A DNA stretch of 64,000 nt from Amphiscolops sp. MND2022 (taxonomy: Eukaryota). Each line of letters begins with the position of its first letter. Within the stretch, counting starts at the first letter, position 1. This document shows, piece by piece, positions 1-39,268 of the stretch. The notes under the pieces were generated by a model. The model did not search any database and was not told the origin of the DNA. It saw only the letters and a list, made by a program, of their open reading frames with translations. The position numbers and the translations under genes were made by a program. The stretch spans positions 1,798,001 to 1,862,000 of the forward strand of contig OZ076409.1 in the NCBI GenBank assembly GCA_964187785.1. Direction: 5' to 3'.

Positions 1-479
1 TCACCACGCCATACTGAAACAATGCTTTTGTGCAGCATGTTCAAATGTCTTTGAACTTGCTGGAATCGGTACAAAGCCGATTCAACTTGCGTTACCTTTT
101 TACCGGTTTCAATTAATAAGTCAAGGAAAGAGTTGCTCCCCAGACAATGACTTGTCTGGTACCTGCTAAAGTAACTTTAATGTTTTGTGAATCCCTTCCT
201 AGGACACTTAGAGTTGAAATAACATGGGAGACAGGCACTGCTCGGGTCAATCAATTATTAAACTTTCACTGCTAGCTGCTGGTTCCTTCATGAGCCGTAA
301 TCTTGTAACTAAGCCATAATTCCCATTCCTGTTAACTTTTTTTAACTTAATCTTCAATGTAAACCAACTTTGCTTTATACTTGAACAACTAATCAATTAA
401 TTGTTCAATCCATTCATCAGCCTTTTATGCTCCCAAGTTAGCAGCCACAAATCACCCTTTGTGCACGCGGGCACAAACA
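1..479 (+). repeat. 5' LTR of BEL/Pao element (partial)
   Basis: Ends ...GCACAAACA; about 97-98% identical to 7987-8466. Confidence 0.95.
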
Positions 480-20707: not shown

Positions 20708-21033
20708 ATTCATCGATATGGGCAAGATCAAAACCTCGATGGAAATTCTTCGTGATCAAGCATCCCAGCAGAAGATTCTGTCAGTTTTAAAACCCCTTGT
20801 GTGCGGAGTCGATTTAAGTTTATTGTTCAATTTGTTCCAAGTCGTTCAACAGTAGCTAGACCAAGCATTAAAACATGTCGACGTGATTTTCGAAAAATTA
20901 ATTGAAATAAGTGAGACCAACAATCCTCTGGCGAAATCTGCTTTCAAAAAATTTACAAAAGTACTCGAAAAAACTCTGGTTTGAAAGTCGTCGCTGACCT
21001 GAGACGGGGTGAGAGCTTTTCTGCCCCTTCTCA
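20708..21033 (+). pseudogene. hAT-like transposase remnant, left of the Gypsy insertion
   Basis: KKFTKVLEK(N)SGLKVVADL-like translation that continues after 39108. Confidence 0.45.
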
Positions 21034-21754
21034 TGTAACGGCAACTGCCCATGTCAAAATTTTCGAAGCAAAAATTCGTTCAAATCTGACGTGGCACTCA
21101 AACATGCTTCAGACGAAAGACCTGTCAAAAAAAGCAGATCCGAAATCAGAAATCGCCCCCGCGAGAGAGGACGAAAAGAGAAGACGTAGAAAACAGTCCC
21201 TAGAACACGGTGAAGTGCCCATCTATGGTCTTTGGCGTTTACACTACATAGGTAACAGAAACCGGTGTTCCAGATGCTCGCCTGAAGATCCTGCGGCGTC
21301 CTGTGCGGTGACGAGCGCTAGCGCTGGGAAGCCATGGTCAATTCGCTCCTGCTAAAAACTCAAACTTCTGATATTGTTGTGCTTATTGTGCTTTCCTTGT
21401 TGTAGTAGATTGATATGCTCGAGAGCTGCTCATTTACATCTATGGTTACCCCTTTTTGATGTCGATTTTATCAGATTCTCCAATACTATGGCTCAACATC
21501 CTCCTGTTTTCAGCCCCCTTTTTAAAGGCTAATTGAGCAGTGGTCTTGAGACATGCAAGATGCCCGTTACTTTTAGCAGTTACAGACTAGGACCAGGCCA
21601 GAGAGTTTCCAACAAGACGGTTCCCCCACCTTGGGACTGGCTCCTTCGGAGGGAAAATGAGCTAGGGCCGCGGAGATCTAGGTCCCAGATTATATTCGCT
21701 GTTCTAGTTCCTCCATTCTACGTTGCGGTTCAAGCGCCAGCGCTTATCGTTACA
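21034..21754 (+). repeat. 5' LTR of Gypsy element
   Basis: No differences from 38388-39108 found by eye. Confidence 0.98.
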
Positions 21755-21769
21755 TAGAACCTCATTTTT

Positions 21770-21789
21770 TGGCGACCACAGAGGGATCG
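21770..21789 (+). promoter_or_regulatory. Primer-binding site, tRNA-Arg-like
   Basis: TGGCGACCACAGAGGGATCG; its reverse complement ...TCCCTCTGTGGTCGCCA resembles a eukaryotic tRNA-Arg 3' end with CCA. Confidence 0.75.
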
Positions 21790-22965
21790 TCTTGGGAAGC
21801 TTTCCCTAGCGGTTTTTAAAAGATCTGGCCCCCTGGTAATCAGCGCCAAGCCCGTTTTGACTCTGAAGAAGGAGAGAAAAGCAGAGTTTTGCCCTTTTTT
21901 AGTCGTGTGACATTCTACTGGAACTGGGAGAGGCGTTGAACCAGAGAAAACCCGAAAAAATCACGTTTTCAGGTGCGAAAATGGTATTTTTAGGTGTTTT
22001 GGAAGGAAATCGATATTTTTGTGTGATGTGTTGTGTGCCCATCAGCGGGTATCTTTTTGCAGGTGCTGAAGACCGTAGCACGTGGCTACGGGTGTTTAAC
22101 AGGTTTTGCAAGCTATTTTCAGCCATTTTATGCCATGCAAGAGGGTGACTGGTGGATGGCTGACCATGAACCAGCGAGGCGAAGGGGGAGTCAAATTGTG
22201 TATTGCCTACTTCCTACTCCCATTTCTCGTGGAGACGTCCTAGAGGTATGGTTTTTGGTGGACAGCAAGTGCAATTGCAGACGATGCTAATGGTCCAACC
22301 CGCGTGTCTCTATCTGGTCTGGATGTGGAGAAAAAGCGTGGTGAAGGTGCACCCCCTGTGACCGGACGCGTCGCTCAAATGGCTCATGGTCGGTGAAATT
22401 TTTGAAAATGCACCTTTTTCGACGGGGAATCGTTGGTGCAGGTCAGTAATGTTTTGTTGTAGATGTAACGACACCCTACGAAGTGCTTTTCTGTAAAAAA
22501 GATAGCACTTGCGTGAAAAAACCCTGATTTTGCGTTTTTTTCGTGTTTTTCGTGGTTTTGAGCACTTGTGCTCAACGGAGCCAGGAAAACTTCGTGAAAA
22601 GTGTTGTAAAAAGCAGCTGCAAGGCTCGAGAAAGCTAGTACGAGGCACAGAAGGCCGTAATTTTGCCTTTGGTTGTGATAAAAGTGCCGGTCTAGCACCA
22701 GAAAATTGCAAAAAAGTGGAATTTTGACCAAAATGGCACCCAGAAACACAGGCGTACACTGGTGTAGAAGTATGAAAAAGCAGTGTACGGTGTTTTGTCA
22801 AGCGTAGTAAACCCACAGGACACTAACTGTAACTTTTACAGCGGATTCAGGCAGCCTGGGGCTGACACGGCGCAAAAAAACCGGTAATTTAAGGTGTTTT
22901 TAGGCATAGAAAGTGCATTGTCTGAAAGTCTTGAGGGTGAAGCTTAGTGGACCAGAGCGAGTTTG

Positions 22966-23243
22966 AACGCTCTTATTTTCCGTTCTAGCAATAAAAATAG
23001 CGCATTTTGGTGAAAACCGCGTGCAAAAACTCCTTTTCAGTGTTGAGAAAAGTTGAAAAACCTTGATTTTTAGTCAGTTTCAGGAGTGTCTGAGTACACA
23101 ATTAAAACCCCTTGGGCACTCTGTCTTTTTGTTAGCTAGGAGCTTCCGCGCTCTCATTTTCTGTTTCTATAATAAAAATAACGCATTGTGGTGAAAACCG
23201 CGTGCAAAAACTCCCATTCAGTGCTGAGAAAAGTGGAAAAACG
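22966..23243 (+). repeat. Two ~95-bp direct repeats in the Gypsy leader
   Basis: GGTGAAAACCGCGTGCAAAAACTCC..TTCAGTG.TGAGAAAAGT occurs twice, 180 bp apart. Confidence 0.85.
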
Positions 23244-24461
23244 CACTGGATTTGATCAATTTTCCACAAAACCGGACTGTCTCTGAGCTAGGGTCGGGTC
23301 ATCGATTCCTGAACCCTAGCCAAAAAGTGGTTGCATTTTCGTAACCACCACAAAAAGTAACGTTAGTGCCGAAAATTTGGTGGGCGTATCGTTCCCCAAA
23401 GTCGAGAAAAGCTCTCTGACGTTTTGACTCCAGAGAAGCTGAAAAAGCCGAAAAAATCCAAAACTGCAGGACCGTCAGTGCCTTATACCTAACGGGCACA
23501 ACCAATTGAGGGTTTATCCCAGTGCTACGGATAGTGGGGCGACACGTTGGTCCCATTTTGCCCGCCGTATCACTTTCTGAGGTGATCCTCTTGGTCAATT
23601 TGTGAAAAAAGTAGTCAAAAACAGTGTTTTTTTGTGTACAACGTACATAGTGGGTCGAAACCTCAAATAAGCGCTCGCGCTTCAATTCGACCTTATCAGT
23701 GGCATTGTAGGTGCCCACAGGCATAAACTACCAAGTTTGGTGCCGATCTGTGTGATACTTGTTGAGAAAATAGGAAAAACGCGGCGCCCAAAAAGGTGTG
23801 CAAAAAGGCAGTTTTTTCTTAATTTTTCCAAGTAACCCGGGTACCTTAGCCGACGGGTGGGTCTATATTGCAGCCCACCATCGTAACCTGTGCTAGTTCC
23901 TACGTCGTTGCAGAGAATTTGAGCTTGCTAGCTTCTTTCAGTGGACCGCAATCTTGAAAAAGACGTGAAAAACAGTGTATCCCTGTACATAGTGGTACCG
24001 CACGCCTGTACCTAGGTGGAACTGTGTAGAAGGGGTGCAGCTCAATTCTGTGTTTATTTTCGTAAACCCACGCGTACCTAAAATCCGCTGGTCAAGTTTG
24101 GGCTTGATACGACGCTTCCAGCGCACACACGAGCCTCTTGAGTGTTGTAGTGCAAATTTTGGAAAATCCAAAAAATCTTTGAAATTCTTCCTGTGAGTGA
24201 CCGGAGACGCTTTGCCCTGAACCAGGTTGATTTTCTGGCCCAGTGTGCTTGTGGAAAAGCGCTGTGCAAATTTGAACAGCCTACGAGCCTTAAAACGTAT
24301 TTCGAGAAATTTGGGACGTTGCGAAACAGTCAAATTTCTTAAGTCCACACCGAGACGAACCTAGAGCTAACAGCGACTCGACAAATCCCGCGTTTTTCGA
24401 GGCTTCTTTAAAGGCTACGTCCGAATCGTTGACGCCTGCTCTGCCATTGGCATTGTGTGTA

Positions 24462-27400
24462 ATGGTCCTACCAGGCCTGGAAAAGCTTGACATGAGTTCG
24501 CAGTCATGGGTGACCATAGGATCCACAATGGACGGTTCGCATGTTTCAGACGAAATGTCTGACGAAGTCACTATCGAGCAACAACGAAAGGAGGAACTGG
24601 CCGCCATGGTCCCTCCCTCCGAGGGTTCCGTTGCATCTGGAAGCTCTCGTCGAACCGAACAATGGGTCGAAGAAATCTGTCGTGAAAGAGCCAATGAAGC
24701 AGAAGAAGAGTGGCCCAACTCAAACGTGACCAACGAACTTGCCTCGTCGATGAGCCAAATGACATCCTCCATGGTTCGAAGTGCCACCCGAGACCAAGGT
24801 GTGGACCCGATGTCACCTATCTATCTAGATACTTCTACCGAAGTTGATTTATCCTGTACTAAGGCCACACTAGGGTCCCAGACTGATGGAGCTGCGTATG
24901 CGACGGCCCCTACCATGGTTTCCGGAACGGACTCCCTGTATCTGACCGCCGACTGGACAGCTGAGGACGGGATGCCCTCGGGCGCTCCTTGCGCGAGTAG
25001 CACTCGCAGGAAAGAAGACGTGACGAACCTCTCAGTGCGAGCTACGCATGGCAGTGACGACGGTACTGATGATGTGGCAACCAAGGAAGGAGAGGCTGAA
25101 GTCATCTCTCCTGAGCAATTGAGGTTCACTGCCGCCATTTCCAAAGCAATGTCCAAAGAACTGGCACCGTTACTTGCGGGACGTGACCTGGCTCAAACCA
25201 AACCCAGCGTGTATCGAGGCTCTAAGGACGGGTCTATTGATGGCTGGATCCTAGTAATGCAGCGATACTTAAAGAGAATCCAAACCAAAATCTCGGCCGA
25301 AGATCGGGCCTGGAGCATTATCGGTCACCTCGAAGGTGAGGCTCGCAACTACATCATCAACAAGGCAGAGTCTGAACGTGACACCCCCGAGAAGGTGTTC
25401 GAGTTGCTATCTAGTCGATTTGGCGCGGGAGGAAATCGCATGCAGGTGCGGCAGACCTTCCAAAGCCGCGTCCAACAAGAAAAAGAAGACTGGATGCAGT
25501 ACTTAGACGCTTTAGAGGGTCTCAGGAGCCAAGGGTTCCCGCAAGAAAGTATCACTACTAAACGCTATGAAATCTTGCAACGCTTCATGGAGGGTGTGCG
25601 AGATCCAGTGTTGAGGCGTGAACTTGCTATAGTATACGCCTCGGAAACTTTTCTTACCGAACCCCCTACCGTGGAGTCCTTGCGATTTACCATACGTCAG
25701 CTGCAACGCAATCGTCCCAGACCCACCCAACCTCAACAACCCTATGATCCCCGATTAGCCATGAGGTCTAGACCTCATCCTTTCGCACCACTACCGCCGA
25801 ACAAGATGGTTATGCCGCAGGGCGTCTTGCCACCTCCGGCGCCCCCCCAAAATGTCCCAGCTCCGGCTATCCCAGCTCCCGTCCGAGCGCCAGTAGGTGC
25901 CTGTTTTCACTGTGGGCAAAACGGACATTTTGCTCGCGAGTGCCCCAATCGTGACCAAGCTCGAAAACCAATGACTGCCTCCGAACCAGAGGGCGTGAAG
26001 GTGACCACGGAAGACACGACCGATGGTATCCTTGAAGGTCATCCAGGGATCTATCAATGCGCGAGCTGTGGCCTTTTCGATCAGGCGGAAGTGCAATGTG
26101 GAGAGCACTCCCATGCGCCGAAACCCAATGAAGAGTTGGCCTACAATCGGTGGGCTGAGGTCGAATCAGCTGGCATCGCCGCGCACACCGTGCCTTTGGA
26201 GGATGACCGCGTGTTAATGCTACATCCAGCGGAACCGCCTGCGTTTCACACTCCAATGACATTCACTTGTGGTGCCAAGCAAGTTCAGACCTGCTTGGAA
26301 CCCACAACGTTCGATCCGCAAGGACGTACGCTAATTTCAATTCACCTGTTGCTGGCAGCTGAGCAAACGCGTAGGCCGACGCTAACTCTGGCCAAGCTAT
26401 GGGTCGAGTTGTCTATCCTCTATAAACGAAACGAGTTACCTCGACCGAAAGAATGGTACGCTCCGGGAGAGTCTGCGACTCTGACGACGTATTCCCCAGT
26501 GCCAGTCTGCGCTTCAATGGATGGAGTGGATATGAAATTCGAAGCCTGTGTGGTGGTGGATGTATTTCCCCCTGGCATTTGTCTGGGTCCCCAGGAGCTC
26601 AAATGCTATAACATCAATCACCAGGAGCCCACCGGCGAAGCGCGTATAGATGAGCGTGCGTCGCTCGTAGTCTCTTTCACGGTGCCTCATGCAGCACCTA
26701 TTCCGCTGCGAGGGCTGGTGGACACCGGCTCGGGCGTCTCCATACTGACGTTTTCCGCCTTCAACAGAGTGGCAGCTCGAACTGGAACGGTACTTAAACC
26801 CTACCAAGTTGACCTGTACGCAGCCAACGGGAAGACAATAAAGACCTACGGCCTCGCAGAACACATCCATTTCCAGCTGGGAGGATACGAACTTGAAACT
26901 AACTTTGTGGTGGTAGATGATGCAATGGGTGTGGAAGAGTTCCTGCTTGGCCGGAACTTTCTTCGATCCTACCAGGTGTTAGTGGATCTAACGTCTATGA
27001 AGATTGTGGTGCGAGCACCAGTGAAGCCTGTGTGGCATCATGCTCACGCACAGGTAGGTGACACTTCAATAGCTACTCCAGTCGTTTTGGACAGTGACTT
27101 GGTCCTGCAACCTTTCGAACGAGCGGTGGCTAGGGCCAAGCTCGTCACCAACACTCTAGAGCCGCTGATTTTTCAAAGCGTAGCGCTCAATGCCTCTCTG
27201 TCTGACACTACGTTGCATAATGTCGTCTTTTTAGAGGACAGCGTGGCCACTGTCAGTGAGACAGGAACACTCTTTGTGAGTCTGATAAATCTCACCAGCA
27301 ACCCTCAACGCATGCGGTGTGGTGTACAACTGGGCACCGTAGTACCCGTAACGGTAGTATACCAAGCAGTACCTCAATGTTTGGACTCTCCCACTACAAC

Positions 27401-30041
27401 CCGCACAAAAACTGACGCCGACGACAGTCGTGCAAATTTTGTTCATAAAGTTTATAGTGAAGTGAATCTATCCACTGCTTCTGAGTTAACCTCTTCTTCC
27501 GAATTTGAGTTTTTGTCCTCTACTGACCCTAGCGAGACAGGACTATCGGAGCGCGAGATTCGCAAACGAACGGACCCAGAGCTAATGGCTCCGATTCCTG
27601 GGCCGGAATCTCAGCTCAAGGCGGTCAAGGATTTGTGGGGCGCTAGCGCCTGCGAGTCTCTCCGTAACCTCCTCGATGAATTCGATGAACTGTTCATGAA
27701 ACACAAAGCAGACATCGGTCGGTGCACTATCGCTAAGCACACCGTGGAGGTGGAACCAGGGGCTGTACCGCATCGCGAAGGTGCTCGCCGGATGTCCCCT
27801 GAGAAGGCCGAACGTGCCAATCAGGAGGTACGGAACCTCTTAGCTCTGGGAATGATACAGCCCTCGCTGTCCCCCTGGGCGAGCGGCATTGTAATGGTGA
27901 AAAAGAAAAACGGGGAGTTGCGCTTTTGCTGCGACTTCCGCCCGTTAAATGAGGTAACCATTAAGGATGCTTATCCCTTGCCCCGCATCGATGAAAGCCT
28001 GGCACGGCTAGGCAAAGCAAAGATCTATACCAGCATAGACCTTGCTTGGGCCTTTTGGCAAATTCCCGTGCGAAAAGCGGATCGCCACAAAACCGCTTTT
28101 GCTTGTGAACTAGGACTTTTTGAGTGGCGGCGAATGCCATTTGGTATGTGCAATGCATCTGCCACGTTTCAGCGGTCAATAGCGCGTGCGCTAAGGAATA
28201 TTGTCAATCGTGAGGGCAGCATGGTCATGGCCTACATTGATGATATCGTGATTGCCACGGAGACTGTGGAAGACCATATGGTACGTCTACGTGAAGTCTT
28301 TGAATGTCTCCGTGAAGCCGGTTTCAAAATGCGCGTGGCCAAATGCGATTTCATGAAATCGGAAATCAAGTATTTGGGACGAGTGGTGTCCGCAGAAGGA
28401 GTGAAGCCCGACCCAAAAGCCGTCGTCAAGTTGCGCGATTGGGAAATTCCCCGTAACAAGACGGAGATGCAGAGTTTCCTTGGATTTGCCAACTATTATC
28501 GCGAATTCATTCCTTGGCACGCTAAGCTGGTTGCACCCCTGCACGCCATCACTGGACTGAATGCCACCTTCGCCTGGGGTCCTGAGCAACAAACCGCATT
28601 CAATGAGATCAAAAAAGCCCTAATCGAGGCAACTGCGCTCGCGCAGCCTGATTCCGAAGGAGAGTTTGTGTTGGACACTGACGCTAGTGCTGTCGCCATT
28701 TCGGGTATCCTGCACCAGTGGCAAGGTCCTCCGGGTGAACGACGCCTGAGACCGATAGTTTACGGTAGCAAGAAGCTCACCACCACACAAGCCAAATACG
28801 GAGCCCCCAAACTTGAAATGTTCGCCGCCTACTATTTCATAGTGAAGAACCACAGCTATCTATGTCCCCGGAAATTCACCCTGCGGGTGGACAACCAAGC
28901 TTTGTCCTGGTTGAAAACCTACTCCACGGATCAAGCGCTAATCGGCCGATGGATTATGACCCTGGAGAAATATCACTTTCGCGTGGAACACCGCCCAAGG
29001 ACCCAACATCGAAACGCCGATGGCTTGAGCAAACGAACCAACGAGTACCGATGCCGCGAAAAACAGCTTGCACAGCAGCCAGCTGCGGGCGAACGCTGGA
29101 ACTTTCTTTCAGCTGACGAATTTGATAAACTACCTGTTGCCCCATGGTTCGACCTTCAGGGTCGAGTCATCCCGAACCATCCCGAGTTACCTGCGCACCT
29201 GCAGAACTTGGAGCCTAAGGCTCCCAACCAATTGCTACGCGTGCTTCGCCGCACCAAACGAGCGAGCAGGAGGGACAGACAAGCAGAAGCATTCGCAGCC
29301 CCTTTGCCACCTCCGCCTTCCCTTACTCTGCAACCGCACGAGGATGCCTATCCAGACTACCCTGAGGACTGGATTGATGTGACTGATGAAGCACGCGAAG
29401 ATTATCTATTGCCAACGCATGCCGTAAATGTTCCCTCGCGTACCGTCTATGCTATTGCTGGGGCGAATCCCGTTGCGTTGCAAGGTACTCCCTCGGGTGT
29501 GCGCGACTCAATTATGGCTCTTAAAGATATCAACACTGAACTTCACGAACATGCTCACACCGTGCATGGTATCAAAGATTTGATTCTAGCCCAAAACCGT
29601 AATGTTCATGTGCTAGCACTCAAAAAGTTGGTGCTGAACGAATCTATCGATCATGACGTGTTTCCCGAGAACGTGCGTGAGTTCGCACGCAACTACTACC
29701 GCCAGAAGAAAACCCTCCTGTTTATCAACAAGAATGGTGTACTTTGCGTACAATACCCTCCCAACCAACGTCCCCTGCACGAACGTCCGTGCATGATCGT
29801 CATGCCACAACTGTACCAGCATGAGATTTTATTCCGCGCGCATGACGCCATGGGACATCAAGGTATCTCCAAAGTGGTGGCTAGGATTCAAGAACGTCAC
29901 ACATGGCCTGGTATTCGGCGCAGCGTGGGCCGTTACGTTGGCCAATGCCTCACCTGTCAACAAGTTCGGGATAAGCCTGGTGACGTCCGATTCCATCTAA
30001 AGAACATCCAAAGCGGATACTTCAACGAATTGGTTCAATAA
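24462..30041 (+). CDS. Gypsy Gag-Pol, part 1 (capsid, CCHC, protease, dUTPase-like, RT, RNase H, IN zinc finger)
   Basis: CFHCGQNGHFAREC; LVDTGSG; LRFCCDFRPLN..KDAYPLPRID; YIDD (28233); LDTDAS..NADGLSKR; HDAMGH..CLTC. Ends at an in-frame TAA inside the integrase. Confidence 0.95.
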   Translation: MVLPGLEKLDMSSQSWVTIGSTMDGSHVSDEMSDEVTIEQQRKEELAAMVPPSEGSVASGSSRRTEQWVEEICRERANEAEEEWPNSNVTNELASSMSQMTSSMVRSATRDQGVDPMSPIYLDTSTEVDLSCTKATLGSQTDGAAYATAPTMVSGTDSLYLTADWTAEDGMPSGAPCASSTRRKEDVTNLSVRATHGSDDGTDDVATKEGEAEVISPEQLRFTAAISKAMSKELAPLLAGRDLAQTKPSVYRGSKDGSIDGWILVMQRYLKRIQTKISAEDRAWSIIGHLEGEARNYIINKAESERDTPEKVFELLSSRFGAGGNRMQVRQTFQSRVQQEKEDWMQYLDALEGLRSQGFPQESITTKRYEILQRFMEGVRDPVLRRELAIVYASETFLTEPPTVESLRFTIRQLQRNRPRPTQPQQPYDPRLAMRSRPHPFAPLPPNKMVMPQGVLPPPAPPQNVPAPAIPAPVRAPVGACFHCGQNGHFARECPNRDQARKPMTASEPEGVKVTTEDTTDGILEGHPGIYQCASCGLFDQAEVQCGEHSHAPKPNEELAYNRWAEVESAGIAAHTVPLEDDRVLMLHPAEPPAFHTPMTFTCGAKQVQTCLEPTTFDPQGRTLISIHLLLAAEQTRRPTLTLAKLWVELSILYKRNELPRPKEWYAPGESATLTTYSPVPVCASMDGVDMKFEACVVVDVFPPGICLGPQELKCYNINHQEPTGEARIDERASLVVSFTVPHAAPIPLRGLVDTGSGVSILTFSAFNRVAARTGTVLKPYQVDLYAANGKTIKTYGLAEHIHFQLGGYELETNFVVVDDAMGVEEFLLGRNFLRSYQVLVDLTSMKIVVRAPVKPVWHHAHAQVGDTSIATPVVLDSDLVLQPFERAVARAKLVTNTLEPLIFQSVALNASLSDTTLHNVVFLEDSVATVSETGTLFVSLINLTSNPQRMRCGVQLGTVVPVTVVYQAVPQCLDSPTTTRTKTDADDSRANFVHKVYSEVNLSTASELTSSSEFEFLSSTDPSETGLSEREIRKRTDPELMAPIPGPESQLKAVKDLWGASACESLRNLLDEFDELFMKHKADIGRCTIAKHTVEVEPGAVPHREGARRMSPEKAERANQEVRNLLALGMIQPSLSPWASGIVMVKKKNGELRFCCDFRPLNEVTIKDAYPLPRIDESLARLGKAKIYTSIDLAWAFWQIPVRKADRHKTAFACELGLFEWRRMPFGMCNASATFQRSIARALRNIVNREGSMVMAYIDDIVIATETVEDHMVRLREVFECLREAGFKMRVAKCDFMKSEIKYLGRVVSAEGVKPDPKAVVKLRDWEIPRNKTEMQSFLGFANYYREFIPWHAKLVAPLHAITGLNATFAWGPEQQTAFNEIKKALIEATALAQPDSEGEFVLDTDASAVAISGILHQWQGPPGERRLRPIVYGSKKLTTTQAKYGAPKLEMFAAYYFIVKNHSYLCPRKFTLRVDNQALSWLKTYSTDQALIGRWIMTLEKYHFRVEHRPRTQHRNADGLSKRTNEYRCREKQLAQQPAAGERWNFLSADEFDKLPVAPWFDLQGRVIPNHPELPAHLQNLEPKAPNQLLRVLRRTKRASRRDRQAEAFAAPLPPPPSLTLQPHEDAYPDYPEDWIDVTDEAREDYLLPTHAVNVPSRTVYAIAGANPVALQGTPSGVRDSIMALKDINTELHEHAHTVHGIKDLILAQNRNVHVLALKKLVLNESIDHDVFPENVREFARNYYRQKKTLLFINKNGVLCVQYPPNQRPLHERPCMIVMPQLYQHEILFRAHDAMGHQGISKVVARIQERHTWPGIRRSVGRYVGQCLTCQQVRDKPGDVRFHLKNIQSGYFNELVQ

Positions 30042-32002
30042 GATCATCTGAAAATCTGCCCCTCAGACAGTAATAACACTGGCATCTTGGTCATAATTGA
30101 CCATTTCTCCAAGTTCGCGGAAGCAGTGCCCTGTAGTCATCATGACTACGACGCTGTGACTACCTCTCGGTTGCTGTTACAAAAGTGGTTCGCCCGTCAT
30201 GGCACTCCCACTAGGATGCAGTCTGACAATGCCCCTAATTTGACTGCCGAGGTGTCCAACGAATTCCTAAAAGCAGCCCACGTTACCAAAGTAACCTCTA
30301 CAGCTAGCCATCCGAGAACCCAAGGCTTGGTCGAGCGCCAAAATCGGACGCTGCTGACCCTACTGCGAGTTTTTTGTTCCCGCCGTATGCGCGATTGGGA
30401 CCAATGTCTTGATGAGGTCATGGGTGCCTACAACTCTACGAGGCACGCTACCACTGGCTTCTCACCCTACATGCTGACCCGTGGCGTAGAGAAGGCCATC
30501 CCTCTCACGTTCTTGTATCCCGAGTTTGCAGCCAAATCATTCGAGTCGCATGAGGCGTATGTCGATCATGTATTGGCTCGCCAACAGGAAATACATGACC
30601 TGGTACGGCGTAACACGCACCAAGCCCAATTGCGTCAAAAGTTGAAGTACGACCGTGCTATACAAGCGCGAGCTTACCAAGTAGGCGAGCTCGTCTGGGT
30701 TTTCTGCCGCTACGTACCGCAAAAGGGTTCCCCGAAATTGATGCGTGCTTGGCGAGGCCCGCACAAAGTGGTACAAGTTTTTCAGGACGGTCGTGTCTAT
30801 GTACTAGACACAGGTCAAAAGGTTCATTTTGAACGTCTTAAACCGCACCACAGTGGCCCACTTGAACTTGCTACTGCACACTCGGACAGTGGTGAGGTGG
30901 TGGTCCTTATGGACCCCGAACCTGAACGTTCCGTCGACGTAGTTGATGACGACAAGTCTTTATCGTCGTATAAACCAGAACAACTACTTTCAGAGGCGTC
31001 CGATGCATCTTTGCCCTCACGTCGACGTCACTGGATGGACACTCGACTACGCACGAAACTTCGCGCAGGCGGCTCCCGCCCGCATTATCAGCAATTTGAC
31101 TATTCCACCTCGGGTACAGACGACGAACTATCCGATGCCATGTTGCCAATACCTCCTAATCCCGTTGACGAGGATATGGTGGAGCCTGCGGCTCCTCCGA
31201 CTACGTTGGATCAGTCGATATCCCCTGCCCGTGTACTACCCCAACTGTTCTCTGACCATGAGCGCGTGCGCTCACCGTCTCCGCAGATATCCTCTGAAGA
31301 AGAGACATCGTTACCAGGAACCTCAGCATCCTTGTTGACGAATCCCTCGCTAACCAACTTTCTTAGTAACTATCCCATATGGCCGACCGCCCCTCCGATT
31401 CCCCTCAAATCTGCCAGCAGCGACAGCAACGTTCAGCCCGATCTGCCTGATGCTCCCGAGACTTCGCCAGGAGCGGGGACCGCTCCTTCTTTTAAAAGGG
31501 GGAGGGGGAGACCACCCAAGGCACAGAAGAAACGGCTGATCCGAGCGAAGGCAAGGACGAGGAAGAAAGAAACACCGAGAAATGCCGAAACCGAAACTGC
31601 GATCCAGGCCGAAACGGAAGCTCCCAGAACTGCAGAGACGCTAACAGAAGCATCTGCAACTGCTCTTAGGTATCAACTAAGGAGTAAACGACAGCCGCGC
31701 TACAAGTGTGGAACCTGCGGACTGCGAGATTGTGTCTGCCTATTAGCTGTGAATGAGAACCGGAGGGTTCCCATTGGAGCCCGGGGAGTTCCTCCGGAAG
31801 AGAGAGAAAACTTGGTGTACCGCCTCACGGTGCGGGCCGAAAAAACCTACTCAGCTGTAGAGCGGTCCGGAGACTACCCTGTGGACACTATCCTGGAGAA
31901 GTTGTCACTGCCTGGGGTAGCGAAGGCCCCTTGTCCTAGGTTTAAGGAGTGGACTAGCGATGGAAAGGGCCTGGAGTTTACCCTGCCCACGGTGTTGCCC
32001 CC
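30042..32002 (+). CDS. Gypsy Pol, part 2: integrase core, GPY/F-like module, long extension with AT-hook and Cys cluster
   Basis: Same frame as part 1. DHLK, IDHFSKF, QSDNA, GLVERQN, WRGPHKV..HFERLK, KRGRGRPPK, CGTCGLRDCVC. Confidence 0.9.
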
Positions 32003-33040
32003 GTGCCTAGTAATATTGCTTTTGGACCATTCAATTTTGAAAGAGAACCTGTGCAGATGGTCCGATGCATCACTGCTGACTTGTTATGCGACAAGTATGG
32101 AGTCCAGGTGGAACCAGGAGGGGTATACAGCCCGGCTCCTCACTGGTGGCTGCTGGTAACAGCTCCACGAGTGGAGGCGCTGGTGGAACCGTTGAATCTG
32201 TTATCCTGTCTGGAGAGTCTGAGGACCCTCACCACTGTGGACTTAATACTTTGCTTCCACATCATAGACTGGTACCGAGGCAAGATGAAATTCACGTGGT
32301 GGCTGGAACTAATAATCACATGTTTCGCCACCTATCCCAGAATTCGACTATTAGATGAGTGGACTCACACCTTCGAGATCCCCTTGTTCCCCAAAGCCGC
32401 CCTGGGAACTTTAGATGCGTGGGTAAAGGCCGGCAGCGACAATCGAGCGATGCCCCGCTCAGTATGGCAAGACCTGGCTGCAGTCCAAGGGCGTACCCCT
32501 CGCGTGTGTCTGCCCCCCGATAATGGTCCCGGACGAGAGATTGTTTACCCGGGAGCCCTGTATCCGAACTCAGCCGAACACGTCTCTTACGATGAATCCG
32601 ATTTCTTGCAGGCCGAGGGCGACATAGTGTTAGCATGCCCTGCTGACCTAAAGACCAACTCTGCCGCCCTGCGATATGTGCTGCGGGAGTGCGGCATGGA
32701 AGATGTATTTGCCTTACGACCTAAGGTGGGCGAGATTCTCACTATCCCGCCTGATGTGAACCCCAACCCTAACCAAAGTATTCACTTGTTGATAGTCCGT
32801 GCTAACCAGCGCGCACCGCTGCTGACAGATGACTACTTGCGTTGCATGACGTACTTGATACAGCGCCTGATAGATAAAGGATCCACACGGGTCCACCTAC
32901 CCATTCTGGATCCCGAGAGACCGGCTTTCTCGTTGGTTAACCTGTACCATACTCTAACGAGCATGTTCGAGGGTACTGGTATTCACGTGGTTTTGCATAG
33001 CCGCGTATATGTATCAATATTAACTATAGGGCTGAAGTAG
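32003..33040 (+). CDS. Gypsy Pol, part 3 (after a 1-nt frameshift): ends in a degenerate TARG1/OARD1-like macrodomain
   Basis: Frame change at a C5 run (31998-32002). The last ~140 aa (VSYDESDFLQAEGDIVLACPADL...KVGEIL...IHLLIVR...RVHLPIL...MFEGTGIHVVLH) follow the TARG1 pattern. Confidence 0.7.
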   Translation: MPSNIAFGPFNFEREPVQMVRCITADLLCDKYGVQVEPGGVYSPAPHWWLLVTAPRVEALVEPLNLLSCLESLRTLTTVDLILCFHIIDWYRGKMKFTWWLELIITCFATYPRIRLLDEWTHTFEIPLFPKAALGTLDAWVKAGSDNRAMPRSVWQDLAAVQGRTPRVCLPPDNGPGREIVYPGALYPNSAEHVSYDESDFLQAEGDIVLACPADLKTNSAALRYVLRECGMEDVFALRPKVGEILTIPPDVNPNPNQSIHLLIVRANQRAPLLTDDYLRCMTYLIQRLIDKGSTRVHLPILDPERPAFSLVNLYHTLTSMFEGTGIHVVLHSRVYVSILTIGLK

Positions 33041-33301: not shown

Positions 33302-33323
33302 GTCTAACAGTGGTCCTTTTTAG
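33302..33323 (+). promoter_or_regulatory. Candidate branch point and splice acceptor for a subgenomic ORF2 mRNA
   Basis: GTCTAAC...TCCTTTTTAG ends 12 nt before the ORF2 ATG. Confidence 0.45.
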
Positions 33324-33335
33324 ACCTATGCATTA

Positions 33336-36300
33336 ATGGCCCATTGCCCAAACAATTCAGCGCCTGCAACCGGGTCTAATAGTGCAAGGCCCCAGGAATC
33401 TGCGCGAGCGCAGAGGGTCAATCAGGCCCAATATGTCGAAGAAAGGCTGCGGGACGGTCTTTCGCCAGTAGCCGTAGCTGGGGTGGCCGCCCTACTGACC
33501 CAGCTTGAATCGATGCAAATGCTGCCAAATGCATCTTTGTCAATCACCACGGAGGTGGCAAGCTATCGTCGCACCTTGACGTGCACCAACAATGCCTGGG
33601 ATGGGCACGACCTGACTCACCAGTTCTTGGACGAAAGATCAATCGCAGTGCATGGCCCCAGCCAGGGCACCAGATTCGAACAAGAAACATCACTGCGTAT
33701 GATGCCCGTCAACGTCCCATCGCTGCCTTCCATTGCGGCACCAAATCCAGTGCAGACGACGCCGTATTCTAGCTCGATTGCTTATGGGGCACCATATGGA
33801 ACCCGGGCAACGACGACGCAGAACATTACCAATCAACCTGCCTCAAGTCGGGAGCCCTCGGGGTCCCAACCGCCATCAGTGCCTAATCTAAATCTGATTG
33901 GACGGAGTCCCAGCGAGCAAGCGGTGATTGTGGCCCTGCAGGCTGTCGCCAACTACCCCAACTCCTCTGACTTCGTTCGTGCCGTTGAGCAAAGGATTCC
34001 CGGATTGACACATTACTTGCAAGCAGCCGCTCAGCCCTCGGGCTGCGTCACCCCACCCACCACCCTAGCCGAGACTGTGTCTATGGAAGCAGAAACTACG
34101 GCTGGACCAAGCACCAGCGCCATGACCTATCCCCGTGAGGAAACTGGCCGGAAGCGACTTACTGAGGAAAATATCGTCGCTACACGCCATGATTCCGTGA
34201 CCGACAGTCCGACCAGTCGTCCCCCTCCGGACAAGCGAGCAGATGTACCCCACCAGTCGCAGATGAAAAGTGTGGGTGTCGTGAGGCCTCCATATCGCGT
34301 CGGCCACCTAGGCGTAGGCGCGCCTCAGATGTCCCTGGAAGAGGCCATCAACCGCTACGGCAGTGTGGAAGCGAATCCTGAAACGAGTCCTGTGCCCTCG
34401 GGCACAGGCTCTGCCAACATGTCCTTGGAGGTGCCCGAGACAATCGATGAGACCAATCCTCCCGCCTTTCTTCCCCCGTCCGATGATGTATCCGGCACCG
34501 TGGTGACTGGCGATAGCAAACGCATCTGGATGGCGGCAGAGTGTTTGTACCCGAACACGTGTGCGGTCAGAAGGAGTGCACCGCCGTCTGACGCCGAGCA
34601 GAAAGAAGTGAGCAGAATCACCATTGCGGCTCAGATAACTCGGTCGCTACGTGCCCGTGATGCGGACTTGAGTGAGCAAGCCTGGGAACAGCGTGCTCGA
34701 GAGCAACTGCCCGCGACACCCAACAATTATATGGCTCGCCTGCAGCATGACCTCACCGAGCAATTTCCTGCTAGGTACATGTTGCACGAAGGGGAAACCT
34801 GGGAAGCCAACGCCCGCTATGCTCGCAACATCAAATCAATGAAGCCCCTCCTGAAAGCAGCTCTGCAGCGTGCGCGCTATTGTGTGGCAGTAGATTCGAC
34901 ACTCAGGAGTGATCTCCCCATCGACAACCTTCTGCCCGATGTGCTGGTATTAACAATGCCACTCTCCCGCTTCGCTGAGGTTGCCGAGATGGTCGCGGTC
35001 ATGTACGACCCTAACCTGAGAGGGTCTCTGAGAGAGCCGCCCCCGCGACGTGTAGTCTTCACCAATCTGATCGACCACATGGCTTGTGAAGGGCTGTTAC
35101 GCAACCTGGATGCCCTCATGGCAGATACCCGCAGACCTGGGAGTGTGGCGTCCTTAGTAAACGTGGTTGCAGACGCAATGGAGCGTGCAGCAGGGATCCT
35201 TCGGGGTCGTCTGGGAGCGCTCGCGCTCTTCGCATCCCCGCCGGGATTCATGTATTGGCAACGAAGCTTGCAGCAATTTGTGTACATCCTGTCTGAGGTA
35301 TGCAAAGCGCGCCGAATCGAGTTTGCTATTTGCGCGCCAAATCTGCGGGTTGATCGAGGAGACCTACGCCCCGATGCATTGTCATACCCCGCCTTCTTTG
35401 CTGCCGTGTCAAGAGTACTAATCGCTGTGGAACGATCAGGAAATGCACAACTGACTATCGACGACGCCATACTGTTCGATCATGGAATGTGTATGGGGCG
35501 AATGGCCTTCGACTTGGACGGGAATCGCGTCATGCGAGCATCCAACATGAGTGAACGAGAGGCCGTCCGACGATACAACTGGCTGGTGCGGAAGGACAAA
35601 GAAATTCCCGTACGAGCAGAGCTGGCAGAGCTCGTGAAGGAAATTGAAGCCTGGCCTGCCACACGCACGGTCGAAAGGACCATTCCCCAGATTCGGTTTG
35701 CCGCGGGAATAGAACCCGTCAAGTTGCCCGTGGGCATGAGGTACGTCGTGGCTATAGAGGCGACCAACTTGAAGGCTGAAGTAGATGCCGCCGGAATAAC
35801 GTATGCCGAATGGTATCAGTCCAGATTCGTGGACAGGACCCTGGCCGAGGTAGCTCAAGAGCTTAACTGTCCCTTGGAAGCCTTTTGTACCAGTCTCGGA
35901 CTAGGCTGGAACATCGACGTAATAGCCTCTGAGTACTTGCTCACCAATGTGCAGACCGACAAATTGTTGGAAACCATCGGCGAAGCTACTGTAGGAGAGA
36001 TGTTAGCGCTCGCGCTAGCCATGGGCCCGACGAAGTTTGTGGCAGGTCCCCTTGCTATGCTAGTCGAGTTGGTAGTGTCCAGTGATCTAGTCACCTTCTA
36101 CAGCTACCTGATCCTCGCGCAGGGACAACTACGCAGCCTAACTCGATGGGGCCACCTCCTAAATTCCAAGGACCAGCAAGATTATGTCGCCCAGCTGGAA
36201 CGCATGCGTGCGTCCCTCCAACATTGGTTGTACTCCACCCTAGTGTTCGCCTCTGGCTTGTTCGTAGGCGTGGATCAATCGCAACCCCTCCACCATTCCG

Positions 36301-37616
36301 AGCGTCAACTCCCTGCGGAAACGGCGGGATTCCCCATGCCCCAGCAAATCGCCGATTTGACTCTGGCCGAAGTGGAGGACTTCGTGGCCGTTATGGCTTC
36401 CGTCCTGGCCCCAATCTTCGGTGCGGTCGGTGTGTGCCGGTATCCCACCAAACCACTGGCGAGAACAGTACAGGTGCATATGGTCTCCTTCTGCACCTAT
36501 CTCCAAGGACGGCCCCCACTGACCTATCAGCGAATCGTGCAGGCTGTATTGAGTGGCGAGATGCCGCACGGGTACACCACCTTGAAGTCGGAGAAACAAC
36601 TAGAAGAGAATTTGATGGGTCTGTTGCGTGCCCGCACACGAAAGGCGTGCCCTTTGCCACGAGAATACGGCCCAGTCAACTGGTACTTCGCACCTCTCAG
36701 CCTGAATGGAGTCCCCTTTAGATTCCCCTGGTCGCAGGAGTTCATACGCAAGGTGATCCGTGCCAGCACTAGTGCTGGTCCACCCGTAGATCCCCTGTAC
36801 GCCTTCAAATGCATCACTTTCCCAAATCACTACTGGAAGGAGCCACTGGGATGGCCTAGAGCAAAACCCGTTGGTCGCGCCCCTGAAGCCTTCAATCGAC
36901 AAATCCAGTATATGGAATTGGCTCGAATCCCAAACTGGATTGAAGGAGCAGCTCAGACTCGTCAGAGGAACCTGCAGAGCCGTGTGACTCCGTTCCCAAG
37001 AAAAGCTGCCTGGCGACCGCAAGCCAAGATGACAATGTCAGGGGATATGTCCATCGTCCAACACGATGAGATTAATTCTGTGCTAGGCTCTGAAGCCCGC
37101 GCAGAGTGGGAAGGACATTGTTTGGAGCTGGAAATTGCCAGCTTCCCCAAATGGAAGCGAGCTTGCGAGCTATGGAGTCAGCCTTGCTGGGTCTCCAAGC
37201 GGATATCCTTGGCCGTGGAGAGTAGAGCTGAACTCGAGAGACAACAGGCGTTCGCGCCTACCATGCTGGCACCCACAATGGCCATGTCACTAAGTCAGCC
37301 CATCGACCGGCCCGTGACTCTGGATTTGCCCACTCACATCCTGCAGGCAGAGCCTGTGAGTCCACCATCGACACAAGCCAGTCCTCAGTCATCGCAACCC
37401 CAGACCGGAGAACACGACGCTGAATTGACCCCCAGCACTATCCTGGTGCAACCAATCGCCGATTTAATGCTCCCAGAGGACCTGTCAGACTCGGAAACAG
37501 TAGTGACTGTGGTTCCTGCTCAACGTAGGGCGTCAATTGCGTCGGAAGATGCCAGCAATCCAGGAACTCCCGATGATGCCATAAAGACTCGAACTCGACG
37601 CAGCTCAGCCCAATGA
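33336..37616 (+). CDS. Accessory ORF2 of the Gypsy element, 1426 aa, unknown function, putative degenerate SGNH-fold domain
   Basis: Intact 4.3-kb ORF between pol and the 3' LTR. S/P/T-rich termini, no N-terminal signal peptide, SGNH-like blocks at ~34875-35430. Confidence 0.9.
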   Translation: MAHCPNNSAPATGSNSARPQESARAQRVNQAQYVEERLRDGLSPVAVAGVAALLTQLESMQMLPNASLSITTEVASYRRTLTCTNNAWDGHDLTHQFLDERSIAVHGPSQGTRFEQETSLRMMPVNVPSLPSIAAPNPVQTTPYSSSIAYGAPYGTRATTTQNITNQPASSREPSGSQPPSVPNLNLIGRSPSEQAVIVALQAVANYPNSSDFVRAVEQRIPGLTHYLQAAAQPSGCVTPPTTLAETVSMEAETTAGPSTSAMTYPREETGRKRLTEENIVATRHDSVTDSPTSRPPPDKRADVPHQSQMKSVGVVRPPYRVGHLGVGAPQMSLEEAINRYGSVEANPETSPVPSGTGSANMSLEVPETIDETNPPAFLPPSDDVSGTVVTGDSKRIWMAAECLYPNTCAVRRSAPPSDAEQKEVSRITIAAQITRSLRARDADLSEQAWEQRAREQLPATPNNYMARLQHDLTEQFPARYMLHEGETWEANARYARNIKSMKPLLKAALQRARYCVAVDSTLRSDLPIDNLLPDVLVLTMPLSRFAEVAEMVAVMYDPNLRGSLREPPPRRVVFTNLIDHMACEGLLRNLDALMADTRRPGSVASLVNVVADAMERAAGILRGRLGALALFASPPGFMYWQRSLQQFVYILSEVCKARRIEFAICAPNLRVDRGDLRPDALSYPAFFAAVSRVLIAVERSGNAQLTIDDAILFDHGMCMGRMAFDLDGNRVMRASNMSEREAVRRYNWLVRKDKEIPVRAELAELVKEIEAWPATRTVERTIPQIRFAAGIEPVKLPVGMRYVVAIEATNLKAEVDAAGITYAEWYQSRFVDRTLAEVAQELNCPLEAFCTSLGLGWNIDVIASEYLLTNVQTDKLLETIGEATVGEMLALALAMGPTKFVAGPLAMLVELVVSSDLVTFYSYLILAQGQLRSLTRWGHLLNSKDQQDYVAQLERMRASLQHWLYSTLVFASGLFVGVDQSQPLHHSERQLPAETAGFPMPQQIADLTLAEVEDFVAVMASVLAPIFGAVGVCRYPTKPLARTVQVHMVSFCTYLQGRPPLTYQRIVQAVLSGEMPHGYTTLKSEKQLEENLMGLLRARTRKACPLPREYGPVNWYFAPLSLNGVPFRFPWSQEFIRKVIRASTSAGPPVDPLYAFKCITFPNHYWKEPLGWPRAKPVGRAPEAFNRQIQYMELARIPNWIEGAAQTRQRNLQSRVTPFPRKAAWRPQAKMTMSGDMSIVQHDEINSVLGSEARAEWEGHCLELEIASFPKWKRACELWSQPCWVSKRISLAVESRAELERQQAFAPTMLAPTMAMSLSQPIDRPVTLDLPTHILQAEPVSPPSTQASPQSSQPQTGEHDAELTPSTILVQPIADLMLPEDLSDSETVVTVVPAQRRASIASEDASNPGTPDDAIKTRTRRSSAQ

Positions 37617-38387
37617 ACCCTGCCGCTAATGGGAGCGTTCGCGCTCCCTATAGACTCTAAACTCTACCGAAACTGTGCCTTCAAACTTATCGCTTTAGCC
37701 GGTGCTACCCTTACATGGTGCAAATTTTTGTTCATAGTTATTACTTAGTTATTGTACTGTTAGTAATGCGCTGGGTGTACGGTTAATAGAGTGCACCTGC
37801 CCCAGCTGCTTCGCCTACAAAGTAAAAAAGAATCTATTACCAAAGAAAAACTGTTATTTCTGTTGCGCACCGTTCGCGGTGTTTTTGAGTTGCCATGGTC
37901 TAGAAAAAGTCTTAGCCTTTTAGTTACAATTTTTGCCGTTTTTCCTTGTGTTTTGGTGCTCAAGCACCTTCTATCGACTGTCTAAGGAGTAGCCGAAGCG
38001 GCGCCCTCCCAAAAGAAGTTTTATGTTGTCCGAAATTGATCGAAAACTGTAAATGTCAAGTTGCACAAAAAAGGAAATTTTAGCTGACCTTGGTCGCAAA
38101 AGAAATTTTAGCGAAAACTGCTTGCCCAAACGAGTTTTAACCGACTGAAAACCTTAGCTCTCGAGCTGGTGCTAAAACCTCGTTTGCACTATTTGTAAAA
38201 ATACTAGGCAGTAAAATTTTCTTTGAAAAAAACAGCGAAATTTGTCAAAAATAGTTGCTGAAAAACAAGGACTCGTCCTTGTCCCCTGTGGTGTGGATGA
38301 TGATCCCCAGCATTCTCAGCGATGCCGTTTCCAGACGAGGCCAGATGCCGCTTGCCAGGGACGACAAGCCAGAAGCCCGGGGAGTGA

Positions 38388-39108
38388 TGTAACGGCAACT
38401 GCCCATGTCAAAATTTTCGAAGCAAAAATTCGTTCAAATCTGACGTGGCACTCAAACATGCTTCAGACGAAAGACCTGTCAAAAAAAGCAGATCCGAAAT
38501 CAGAAATCGCCCCCGCGAGAGAGGACGAAAAGAGAAGACGTAGAAAACAGTCCCTAGAACACGGTGAAGTGCCCATCTATGGTCTTTGGCGTTTACACTA
38601 CATAGGTAACAGAAACCGGTGTTCCAGATGCTCGCCTGAAGATCCTGCGGCGTCCTGTGCGGTGACGAGCGCTAGCGCTGGGAAGCCATGGTCAATTCGC
38701 TCCTGCTAAAAACTCAAACTTCTGATATTGTTGTGCTTATTGTGCTTTCCTTGTTGTAGTAGATTGATATGCTCGAGAGCTGCTCATTTACATCTATGGT
38801 TACCCCTTTTTGATGTCGATTTTATCAGATTCTCCAATACTATGGCTCAACATCCTCCTGTTTTCAGCCCCCTTTTTAAAGGCTAATTGAGCAGTGGTCT
38901 TGAGACATGCAAGATGCCCGTTACTTTTAGCAGTTACAGACTAGGACCAGGCCAGAGAGTTTCCAACAAGACGGTTCCCCCACCTTGGGACTGGCTCCTT
39001 CGGAGGGAAAATGAGCTAGGGCCGCGGAGATCTAGGTCCCAGATTATATTCGCTGTTCTAGTTCCTCCATTCTACGTTGCGGTTCAAGCGCCAGCGCTTA
39101 TCGTTACA
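38388..39108 (+). repeat. 3' LTR of Gypsy element
   Basis: Preceded by purine-rich AGAAGCCCGGGGAGTGA; TGTAACG...CGTTACA. Confidence 0.98.
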
Positions 39109-39268
39109 TCAAATTGGAATTCATAGTTTTGCAAGATGTCTTACAGTTGATGTGGGGGGGGGGGGGGGTATTCCTCAATTTTAAGTGCTTTTATCGCTCA
39201 TCGTCCGCACATTCTTGATGAAACATTGTTAAAATTGTTGTCTATCAAGTACAATAGAAGGCTGTAAT
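39109..39268 (+). pseudogene. hAT-like transposase remnant, right of the Gypsy insertion
   Basis: IGIHSFARCLTVDV[poly-G]..SILSAFIAHRPHILDETLLKLLSIKYNRRL* resembles the ..AP.TS.DVER.FS.......R C-terminal pattern. Confidence 0.45.

Follow-up and report, generated by a model that had tools for sequence, protein, structure and literature searches.

A predicted SGNH-like fold, probably without its catalytic histidine, in the third open reading frame of a young Ty3/Gypsy-type retrotransposon from Amphiscolops sp. MND2022

Introduction

Unrelated retroelements have repeatedly acquired esterase-type accessory genes, among them ORF1 of CR1/L2 elements, ORF3 of the rotifer Vesta elements and the genes of the Athena elements. 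In bdelloid rotifers the Vesta long terminal repeat (LTR) retrotransposons carry a third open reading frame (ORF3) that encodes a GDSL esterase/lipase, and the Athena-L Penelope-like elements, or Terminons, carry catalytically degenerate GDSL derivatives; the authors who describe both argue that such GDSL ORFs are auxiliary rather than env-like (Rodriguez, Kenefick and Arkhipova 2017, PMC5408684). The esterase of ZfL2-1 ORF1p, in the report by Schneider et al. (2013, PMC3905857), bound lipids and liposomes and showed no binding to oligo(A) RNA. Small non-Env accessory ORFs can also mediate cell-to-cell transfer of LTR elements, according to a 2025 preprint (10.1101/2025.03.14.642691). Here we describe the ORF3 of an LTR retrotransposon from Amphiscolops sp. 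MND2022, located within a stretch of 64,000 nucleotides (contig OZ076409.1, positions 1,798,001 to 1,862,000; hereafter the window, meaning the whole stretch that was analysed).

We propose that ORF3 is a functioning gene in a Ty3/Gypsy-type lineage that is both young and very abundant, that its product (ORF3p) contains a domain of the SGNH-hydrolase fold, and that this domain would serve in binding rather than in classical ester hydrolysis. We put the joint probability of these claims at roughly 0.55, a figure that covers the well-supported structural and genetic claims together with the mechanistic inference.

Results

ORF3 is an intact gene of a young element

A single LTR retrotransposon of 18,077 bp fills the GC-rich block at about 21-39 kb of the window, where the GC content is 0.52-0.57 as against 0.33-0.40 in the flanks. 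Its two LTRs are 100% identical over their whole length, and hence the element is very young; the flanks show a possible 3-bp target duplication, TCA. In the long frame behind the 5' LTR the Pfam domains zf-CCHC, gag-asp_proteas, RVT_1 (E 9e-35), RT_RNaseH_2 and Integrase_H2C2 follow one another. This is the gag, protease (PR), reverse transcriptase (RT), RNaseH and integrase (IN) order of Ty3/Gypsy elements and, together with the direct LTRs and their TG..CA ends, places the element in the Ty3/Gypsy (Metaviridae) type.

A preliminary description of this locus, made from the sequence alone, had reported an intact ORF of 1426 amino acids (aa) in the env position, and both statements are correct. 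ORF3 has a stop-to-stop frame of 33324-37616 with no internal stop; pol precedes it and the 3' LTR follows it, in an element with identical repeats at its two ends. Given the base composition of ORF3 itself, a run of 1426 codons would be free of stops by chance with a probability of about 6e-24.

A search of the genome (1.07 Gb in 1929 contigs) for further copies returned 5220 first-look ORF3 candidate loci, the best 33 of which were scored; the lineage thus combines thousands of candidate copies with identical LTRs. Three ORF3 families were compared, namely that of the window, P0006 at about 76-80% protein identity to it and P0025 at about 37-43%. Stop-free frames were found in 30/33, 17/33 and 16/32 of the scored copies of the three families, which had been ranked by protein score, a ranking that favours intact copies. 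All scored genomic matches to three full-length queries were full-length, intronless ORF3. The element context was taken from three copies, and ORF3 lay directly downstream of pol and its extension in each of the three families so examined (the window, a C4 copy and a C10 copy). Further open frames of the ORF3 type, about 1432 and 1451 aa long and located for example at C11:19350690-19352708 and C10:60868244-60870469, indicate that the genome holds more than three ORF3 families.

Outside this genome, a full HMMER pass over 1.84 billion representatives recovered 463 proteins at E<=1e-3; most are fragments, and the lowest identities are 27-31%. The relative P0191 (1187 aa) finds its best match in the window's genome at just 29-30% identity and therefore comes from another assembly. 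Metagenome and viral contigs, scanned with an alignment of five diverged family members, yielded pattern matches with no relative confirmed among them.

ORF3 evolves under constraint

In a Nei-Gojobori comparison of the window ORF3 with a P0006-type copy, the proportion of nonsynonymous differences (pN) was 0.141 and that of synonymous differences (pS) 0.718, giving an omega of about 0.07 with saturated dS. The linker (residues 121-385) had the highest pN, 0.217, and is the least constrained part of ORF3; the region around the SGNH-like domain (residues 510-740) gave a pN of 0.104 and a pS of 0.725, and residues 976-1290 likewise a pN of 0.104. Judged by these substitution patterns, ORF3 is under strong purifying selection. 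The preliminary description had named a captured host gene evolving neutrally as an alternative to its own reading; with pN far below pS between families, the comparison argues otherwise and excludes neutral drift of such a gene.

The domain is predicted to have the SGNH fold

We modelled residues 460-770 with AlphaFold2 (AF2) from a 72-sequence alignment. The best model had a mean predicted local distance difference test score (pLDDT) of 77.4 and a predicted template modelling score of 0.80, with pLDDT values of 86-97 in 10-residue blocks over model residues ~110-270; the five models spanned pLDDT 58.7 to 77.4. Strands were predicted at 515-519, 536-540, 572-576 and 629-633 with helices between them, and the predicted structure shows the three-layer alpha/beta/alpha arrangement with a parallel sheet that characterises the flavodoxin-like SGNH topology.

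An unbiased VIA-align scan of 48,161 PDB chains placed 1bwp, a platelet-activating factor acetylhydrolase (PAF-AH) Ib structure, at the top (Z 10.7, root-mean-square deviation (rmsd) 3.5 A, 177 residues aligned), and 27 chains reached Z>=8 and 94 reached Z>=5. Among the matches listed, 50/50 are esterases, lipases, acylhydrolases or O-acetyltransferases. The titles of 11 name GDSL or SGNH, and the others we take to have the SGNH fold as well. When Foldseek's top 1000 were re-scored, the best Z was 10.8 and 82 chains stood at Z>=8. Foldseek's own PDB list was led by GDSL/SGNH entries (4iyj at probability 0.99), with PAF acetylhydrolase also high, and in the viral library BFVD it found phage SGNH tail-fibre esterases and GDSL lipases with a best E of 8.5e-4.

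The AF2 model and the PDB scans (best Z 10.7-10.8) therefore support the SGNH/GDSL fold that had been suggested for this segment. The accompanying label, OSK-like, fits loosely at best: Oskar OSK came only at rank 33 with Z 7.9, far behind PAF acetylhydrolase, and Pfam OSK had no match.

Conserved residues lie at putative esterase active-site positions

The six motifs quoted in the preliminary description were all found, at residues 516-684 (nt 34881-35387), and its assignments of blocks I, III and V fit the model. At block I, V-D520-S521 directly follows strand 515-519; S521 is present in 38/42 sequences of a wide alignment and in 5/5 of the diverged sequences. At block III, N577 stands right after strand 572-576 and is likewise kept in 50/53 and 5/5. 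Close behind it, D580 (50/52) and H581 (49/52) are nearly invariant in the wide alignment, and G637 is present in 52/56; the full-length relative at the greatest distance has Asp in place of H581. At block II, strand 536-540 is followed by M-P-L-S-R with an invariant P542, and no conserved Gly was identified there in the alignments.

Block V departs from the canonical pattern. The sequence here reads D676-L-R678-P679, with Arg at the expected His-Pro position, as had been proposed; R678 is invariant in the five-sequence alignment and present in 49/57 of the wide one. Beyond strand 5, no His is conserved at another position either (H716, 30/49). The full set of invariant residues in the five-sequence alignment, which reaches 24% identity, comprises D520, S521, N577, D580, G637, N669, R671, R678, D709, D710 and D715.

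Chains of E. coli TesA (residues 1..179) align to model residues 53..241. If the alignment ends are gapless, then with Ser10 and His157 as the TesA catalytic residues S521 would fall on the nucleophile and R678-P679 on the block V His-Pro. Because an invariant Arg takes the position of the catalytic His, the SGNH-like domain is most likely not a classical Ser-His-Asp esterase. With the putative nucleophile Ser and oxyanion Asn both invariant, the earlier suggestion of an inactive pseudo-enzyme is no more than plausible.

A predicted helical domain and a hydrophobic helix follow

A second model, of residues 760-1290, had an overall pLDDT of 66.9; an all-helical domain at ~784-974 was predicted at pLDDT 93-98 and the remainder with low confidence. 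The helical domain was searched only inside this partly low-confidence, 531-residue model, for which Foldseek against the PDB and VIA-align gave no convincing match (best Z 4.8, to a terminal helix pair). Behind it, the segment 1016-1034 lies on a separate helix (254-275 of the second model), with a 19-residue Kyte-Doolittle (KD) mean of 2.28, and it is hydrophobic in both sister families. This segment, which does not figure in the preliminary description, lies ~390 residues from the C-terminus and is a candidate membrane segment. The stretches 892-919 and 962-977 were also considered as transmembrane helices and were dropped, since both fall within the globular helical domain, which the model predicts with confidence.

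We agree with the preliminary description that ORF3p shows no apparent signal peptide and no clear C-terminal anchor. Over the first 35 residues, which are hydrophilic, the 9-residue KD mean does not exceed -0.27 (a hydropathy estimate only), so that the N-terminal signal peptide of an Env protein is not seen by hydropathy. The final ~135 residues are rich in Ser, Ala and Pro, which speaks against an anchor. The linker and the tail are rich in Pro, Ser, Ala and Thr, and the protein holds 6 N-x-S/T sequons.

At the far C-terminus (nt 37590-37613) a basic stretch is followed by Ser and a terminal Gln. This end is kept in the window, P0006 and P0025 families and may form a short linear motif; the rest of the tail is variable across the three. 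Upstream of the frame, a pyrimidine-rich tract ending in AG (33315-33335, ~12 nt before the ORF3 ATG) could act as the splice acceptor of a subgenomic mRNA.

Table 1. Features of the ORF3-bearing element, with positions counted from the first nucleotide of the window.
Feature	Position	Strand	Basis or remark
5' LTR	21033-21755	+	723 bp; TG...CA core 21034-21754; terminal inverted repeat
gag-PR-RT-RNaseH-integrase frame	24294-32159	+	Pfam; one in-frame stop in this copy at 30039-30041
Pol C-terminal extension, ~325 aa	31958-33040	+	in frame behind the integrase C-terminus in sister-family copies
ORF3, 1426 aa	33336-37616	+	open for 1426 codons, between pol and 3' LTR
ORF3 N-terminal conserved blocks, residues ~25-110 and ~190-225	33408-34010	+	between-family conservation at 37-43% overall identity
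Pro/Ser/Thr-rich variable linker, residues ~226-385	34011-34490	+	aligns poorly between families; composition
SGNH-hydrolase-like domain, residues 512-705	34869-35450	+	AF2 model, fold searches, residue conservation
D520-S521	34893-34898	+	within SGNH-like domain; putative block I
N577	35064-35066	+	within SGNH-like domain; putative block III
R678-P679	35367-35372	+	within SGNH-like domain; putative block V
All-helical domain, residues ~784-974	35685-36257	+	model pLDDT 93-98
Hydrophobic helix, residues 1016-1034	36381-36437	+	KD mean 2.28; candidate membrane segment
Conserved C-terminal region, residues ~1035-1290	36438-37205	+	pN; blocks align in 24%-identical relative; pLDDT mostly <60
3' LTR	38387-39109	+	723 bp; second member of the direct repeat pair

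The pol frame and its lesions

The segments 24294-30041 and 30042-32159 share one reading frame. The stop that separates them is private to the window copy: of 30 loci retrieved, one was the window itself and another was dropped for want of an exact anchor match, and the remaining 28/28 have a sense codon at this site. Near 31997 a one-base length difference shifts the frame; it too is private, as 7/7 other copies differ, and in all seven pol reads on uninterrupted to about 33040. It is this difference that creates a seemingly separate ORF of 327 aa at 32057-33040. A short run of C contains one of the two lesions. Because the length difference is confined to the window copy, we rejected the idea that a programmed -1 frameshift joins pol to the downstream frame.

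Given identical LTRs, either a defective template mobilised in trans passed both lesions on, or they are assembly errors. The preliminary description had set the intact ORF3 against a damaged pol. Both observations are true of the window copy; as evidence about ORF3, the contrast weighs little because both lesions are private to this copy. The Pol extension had no match in Pfam, NCBIfam, PDB sequences or the ESM Atlas, and by eye it has the look of an alpha/beta domain.

Other features of the window and genome

The leader between the 5' LTR and the gag frame is unusually long at ~2.5 kb (21756-24293) and holds a 103-nt direct repeat pair (22959-23061 and 23140-23242; 83% identity, spacing 181). 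Rfam gave 0 matches on the window. Pfam detected no Bel-Pao markers in the ORF3-bearing element, unlike in its upstream neighbour (2133-7636, + strand), a Bel-Pao-type retrotransposon with DUF1759, Peptidase_A17, Integrase_H2C2 and DUF5641 and with breaks in its frame; an element of this type is in keeping with an animal host.

Elsewhere in the genome, PF13472 has 39 genomic matches. Another LTR family bears a canonical GDSL esterase with intact GDS, GTND and DGIHPN motifs (L054:1054-2607 (-); L048-L055 generally). This esterase shares an open frame behind Integrase_p58_C (E 5e-12) and matches Lipase_GDSL_2 at E 7e-12 and OSK at E 2e-7; no pol-esterase fusion of this kind turned up in the open-access literature. 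Because a second LTR family bears a canonical esterase, LTR elements of this genome, as far as these sequences tell, acquired SGNH domains on two or more occasions, or else in two very different states.

Discussion

Collectively our data describe an intact, constrained ORF3 in a young retrotransposon, with a predicted SGNH fold whose catalytic His is probably lost. A number of results weigh against this interpretation. ORF3 matched 0 families in Pfam (E<=1) and NCBIfam, and the 72 family members gave 0 GDSL or OSK matches in Pfam even at E<=10; Pfam searches of the 72 and of five members returned scattered single chance matches only. PDB sequence and profile searches with the family alignments gave nothing below E 0.3, the profile search having 0 matches, and the ESM Atlas gave no usable match for residues 480-1260. 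With hhalign, the family profile compared to the canonical GDSL esterase of the same genome had a probability of 0.4 and left the domain unaligned. The curated profiles Lipase_GDSL, Lipase_GDSL_2 and OSK thus do not recognise ORF3. In the structural searches, Foldseek had no PDB match at E<=1e-3 (best 6.5e-3, to 4iyj), and a Z of 10.7 is good and not overwhelming, since models without a clear match typically reach a best Z of 7-8 by the tool's own caution. We infer the equivalence to blocks I, III and V from strand positions and alignment end-points. The hydrophobic helix 1016-1034 may simply be buried in the protein core. Finally, among eight copies from the family of the window pN/pS was 0.28 when counted on singletons and 0.05 on shared variants, values that are biased downward because the copies were pre-selected by protein similarity. 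On balance we regard a Z of 10.7 with a uniform match list as good evidence for the SGNH fold, not conclusive evidence.

The conserved residues also leave room for real catalysis. The domain could be an active hydrolase or acyltransferase with S521 as nucleophile, N577 at the oxyanion position and H581/D580 or one of the Asp residues 709, 710 and 715 in the role of the base, its substrate being a lipid, a glycan O-acetyl group or an RNA or protein modification in the cycle of the element. This would agree with the invariance of S521 and N577 down to 24% identity, with the near-invariant D580-H581 and with the very strong selection on the domain; catalytically intact GDSL ORFs occur in the other LTR family of this genome and in other retroelements (PMC5408684, PMC3905857). 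We nonetheless consider catalysis unlikely, as R678 replaces the block V His throughout the five sequences, H716 is far from conserved and H581 gives way to Asp in the most distant full-length relative.

The loss of the His, together with invariant Arg residues (R671 and R678) in the former active-site region, would also suit a pseudo-esterase that binds RNA as OSK does, with ORF3p acting in ribonucleoprotein (RNP) assembly or against silencing. Oskar OSK (5a4a) is indeed among the fold matches; its Z of 7.9 falls short of the 10.7 of true esterases, however, and its Pfam family does not match. A zinc-knuckle Gag is already present in the element, and in the one case where a retroelement esterase was tested in vitro, it bound lipids but failed to bind oligo(A) RNA (PMC3905857). 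We hold an RNA-binding role to be a little less likely still than catalysis.

It is improbable that the SGNH likeness reflects no homology at all, i.e. an unrelated three-layer alpha/beta fold or a prediction artefact. The lack of any sequence or profile signal, the Foldseek PDB E values above 1e-3 and the spread of the AF2 models (pLDDT 58.7-77.4) would all be expected on that account. Against it, every one of the 50 listed scan matches falls in one fold class with 150-190 residues aligned, which is most of the domain, and conservation within the family peaks at the three motif positions that coincide with blocks I, III and V. It is very improbable that ORF3 encodes an envelope or fusion glycoprotein, or that it came from a host by recent capture and is now drifting neutrally. 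Its env position, the strongly hydrophobic internal segment and the 6 sequons would favour such readings; the hydrophilic N-terminus, the large excess of pS over pN between families, the shared location in three diverged families and the scored matches, all full-length and intronless, speak against them.

We therefore return to ORF3p as a putative cytoplasmic multi-domain accessory protein, neither an envelope glycoprotein nor a decaying captured gene. Its layout would comprise N-terminal blocks, a disordered Pro/Ser linker, the highly diverged SGNH-fold domain (512-705), the compact helical domain (784-974), the hydrophobic helix (1016-1034), the C-terminal region and a disordered tail. In the mechanism that we consider most likely, the SGNH-like domain would be a non-hydrolytic ligand-binding module for an anionic lipid or a membrane. 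Acting jointly, this domain and the hydrophobic helix would deliver the element's particles or RNP to membranes in support of assembly, transport or transfer. The proposal is modelled on the lipid-binding esterase of ORF1p in L2/CR1 non-LTR elements, and we hold it tentatively, at somewhat less than even odds. A bolder version, in which ORF3p founds an undescribed family of accessory proteins in at least two animal genomes and joins a dead lipase fold, a helical domain and a hydrophobic helix into an envelope-independent membrane machine that docks capsids or moves them between cells, is a long shot. In function such a machine would be comparable to sORF2 of Drosophila MDG1 elements, which is small and FAST-like, though the two architectures would differ entirely.

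Whatever its precise function, a domain of this kind can apparently persist under strong selection after the loss of its catalytic His, in a currently very successful lineage. This persistence points to a binding rather than a hydrolytic role. Profile-based transposable-element annotation misses the SGNH-like domain entirely. ORF3p is a tractable protein on which the lipid/membrane hypothesis of retroelement esterases could be examined, and both the all-helical domain (searched within the 531-residue model) and the ~325-aa Pol extension match no known family in the searches run.

Comparison with known systems

The closest structures are the PAF-AH Ib alpha subunits (1bwp, 1bwq, 1wab and 1vyh; Z 10.7-10.8, rmsd 3.4-3.5 A, 175-177 residues aligned), and the match extends into the N-terminal part of the model (model 3..240). 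These enzymes have a full Ser-His-Asp triad. They share 13-14% identity with the ORF3 domain, and no sequence-level relationship was detected. Drosophila Oskar OSK (rmsd 4.3 A, 163 residues aligned) is likewise an SGNH fold in which catalysis was lost, with a binding role gained; its structural score lies below those of true esterases and Pfam OSK (PF17182) has no match to ORF3.

Among retroelements, the ORF1p of CR1/L2/RTEX elements such as ZfL2-1 likewise places an SGNH fold in a non-Gag accessory protein. It is, however, encoded upstream of pol and is small, a coiled-coil dimer and hydrolytically active (PMC3905857), whereas the protein of the window is encoded by ORF3 and lacks the His. 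The ZfL2-1 ORF1p structure was not among the structural matches listed. The Athena-L elements resemble the present one in bearing an SGNH derivative without catalytic residues; they belong to another retroelement class (PMC5408684).

In Vesta, too, a Gypsy-like LTR element encodes an SGNH-type domain in a third ORF behind pol; this ORF3 is described as having no coiled coil or transmembrane features of env and is proposed to be an auxiliary factor (PMC5408684). The same paper reports the catalytic residues of the rotifer ORF3 as intact and its domain as recognisable by HHpred (PMC5408684), whereas the ORF3 of the window is invisible to profiles, has His replaced by Arg and carries its SGNH-like domain inside a multi-domain protein of 1426 aa. 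In the open-access literature we found no description of the 1426-aa family or of an SGNH ORF3 with this His-to-Arg change. A GDSL-type ORF3 in LTR elements is thus already known; what is new here is one that is profile-invisible, has Arg in place of His, forms part of a large multi-domain protein and belongs to a very successful lineage.

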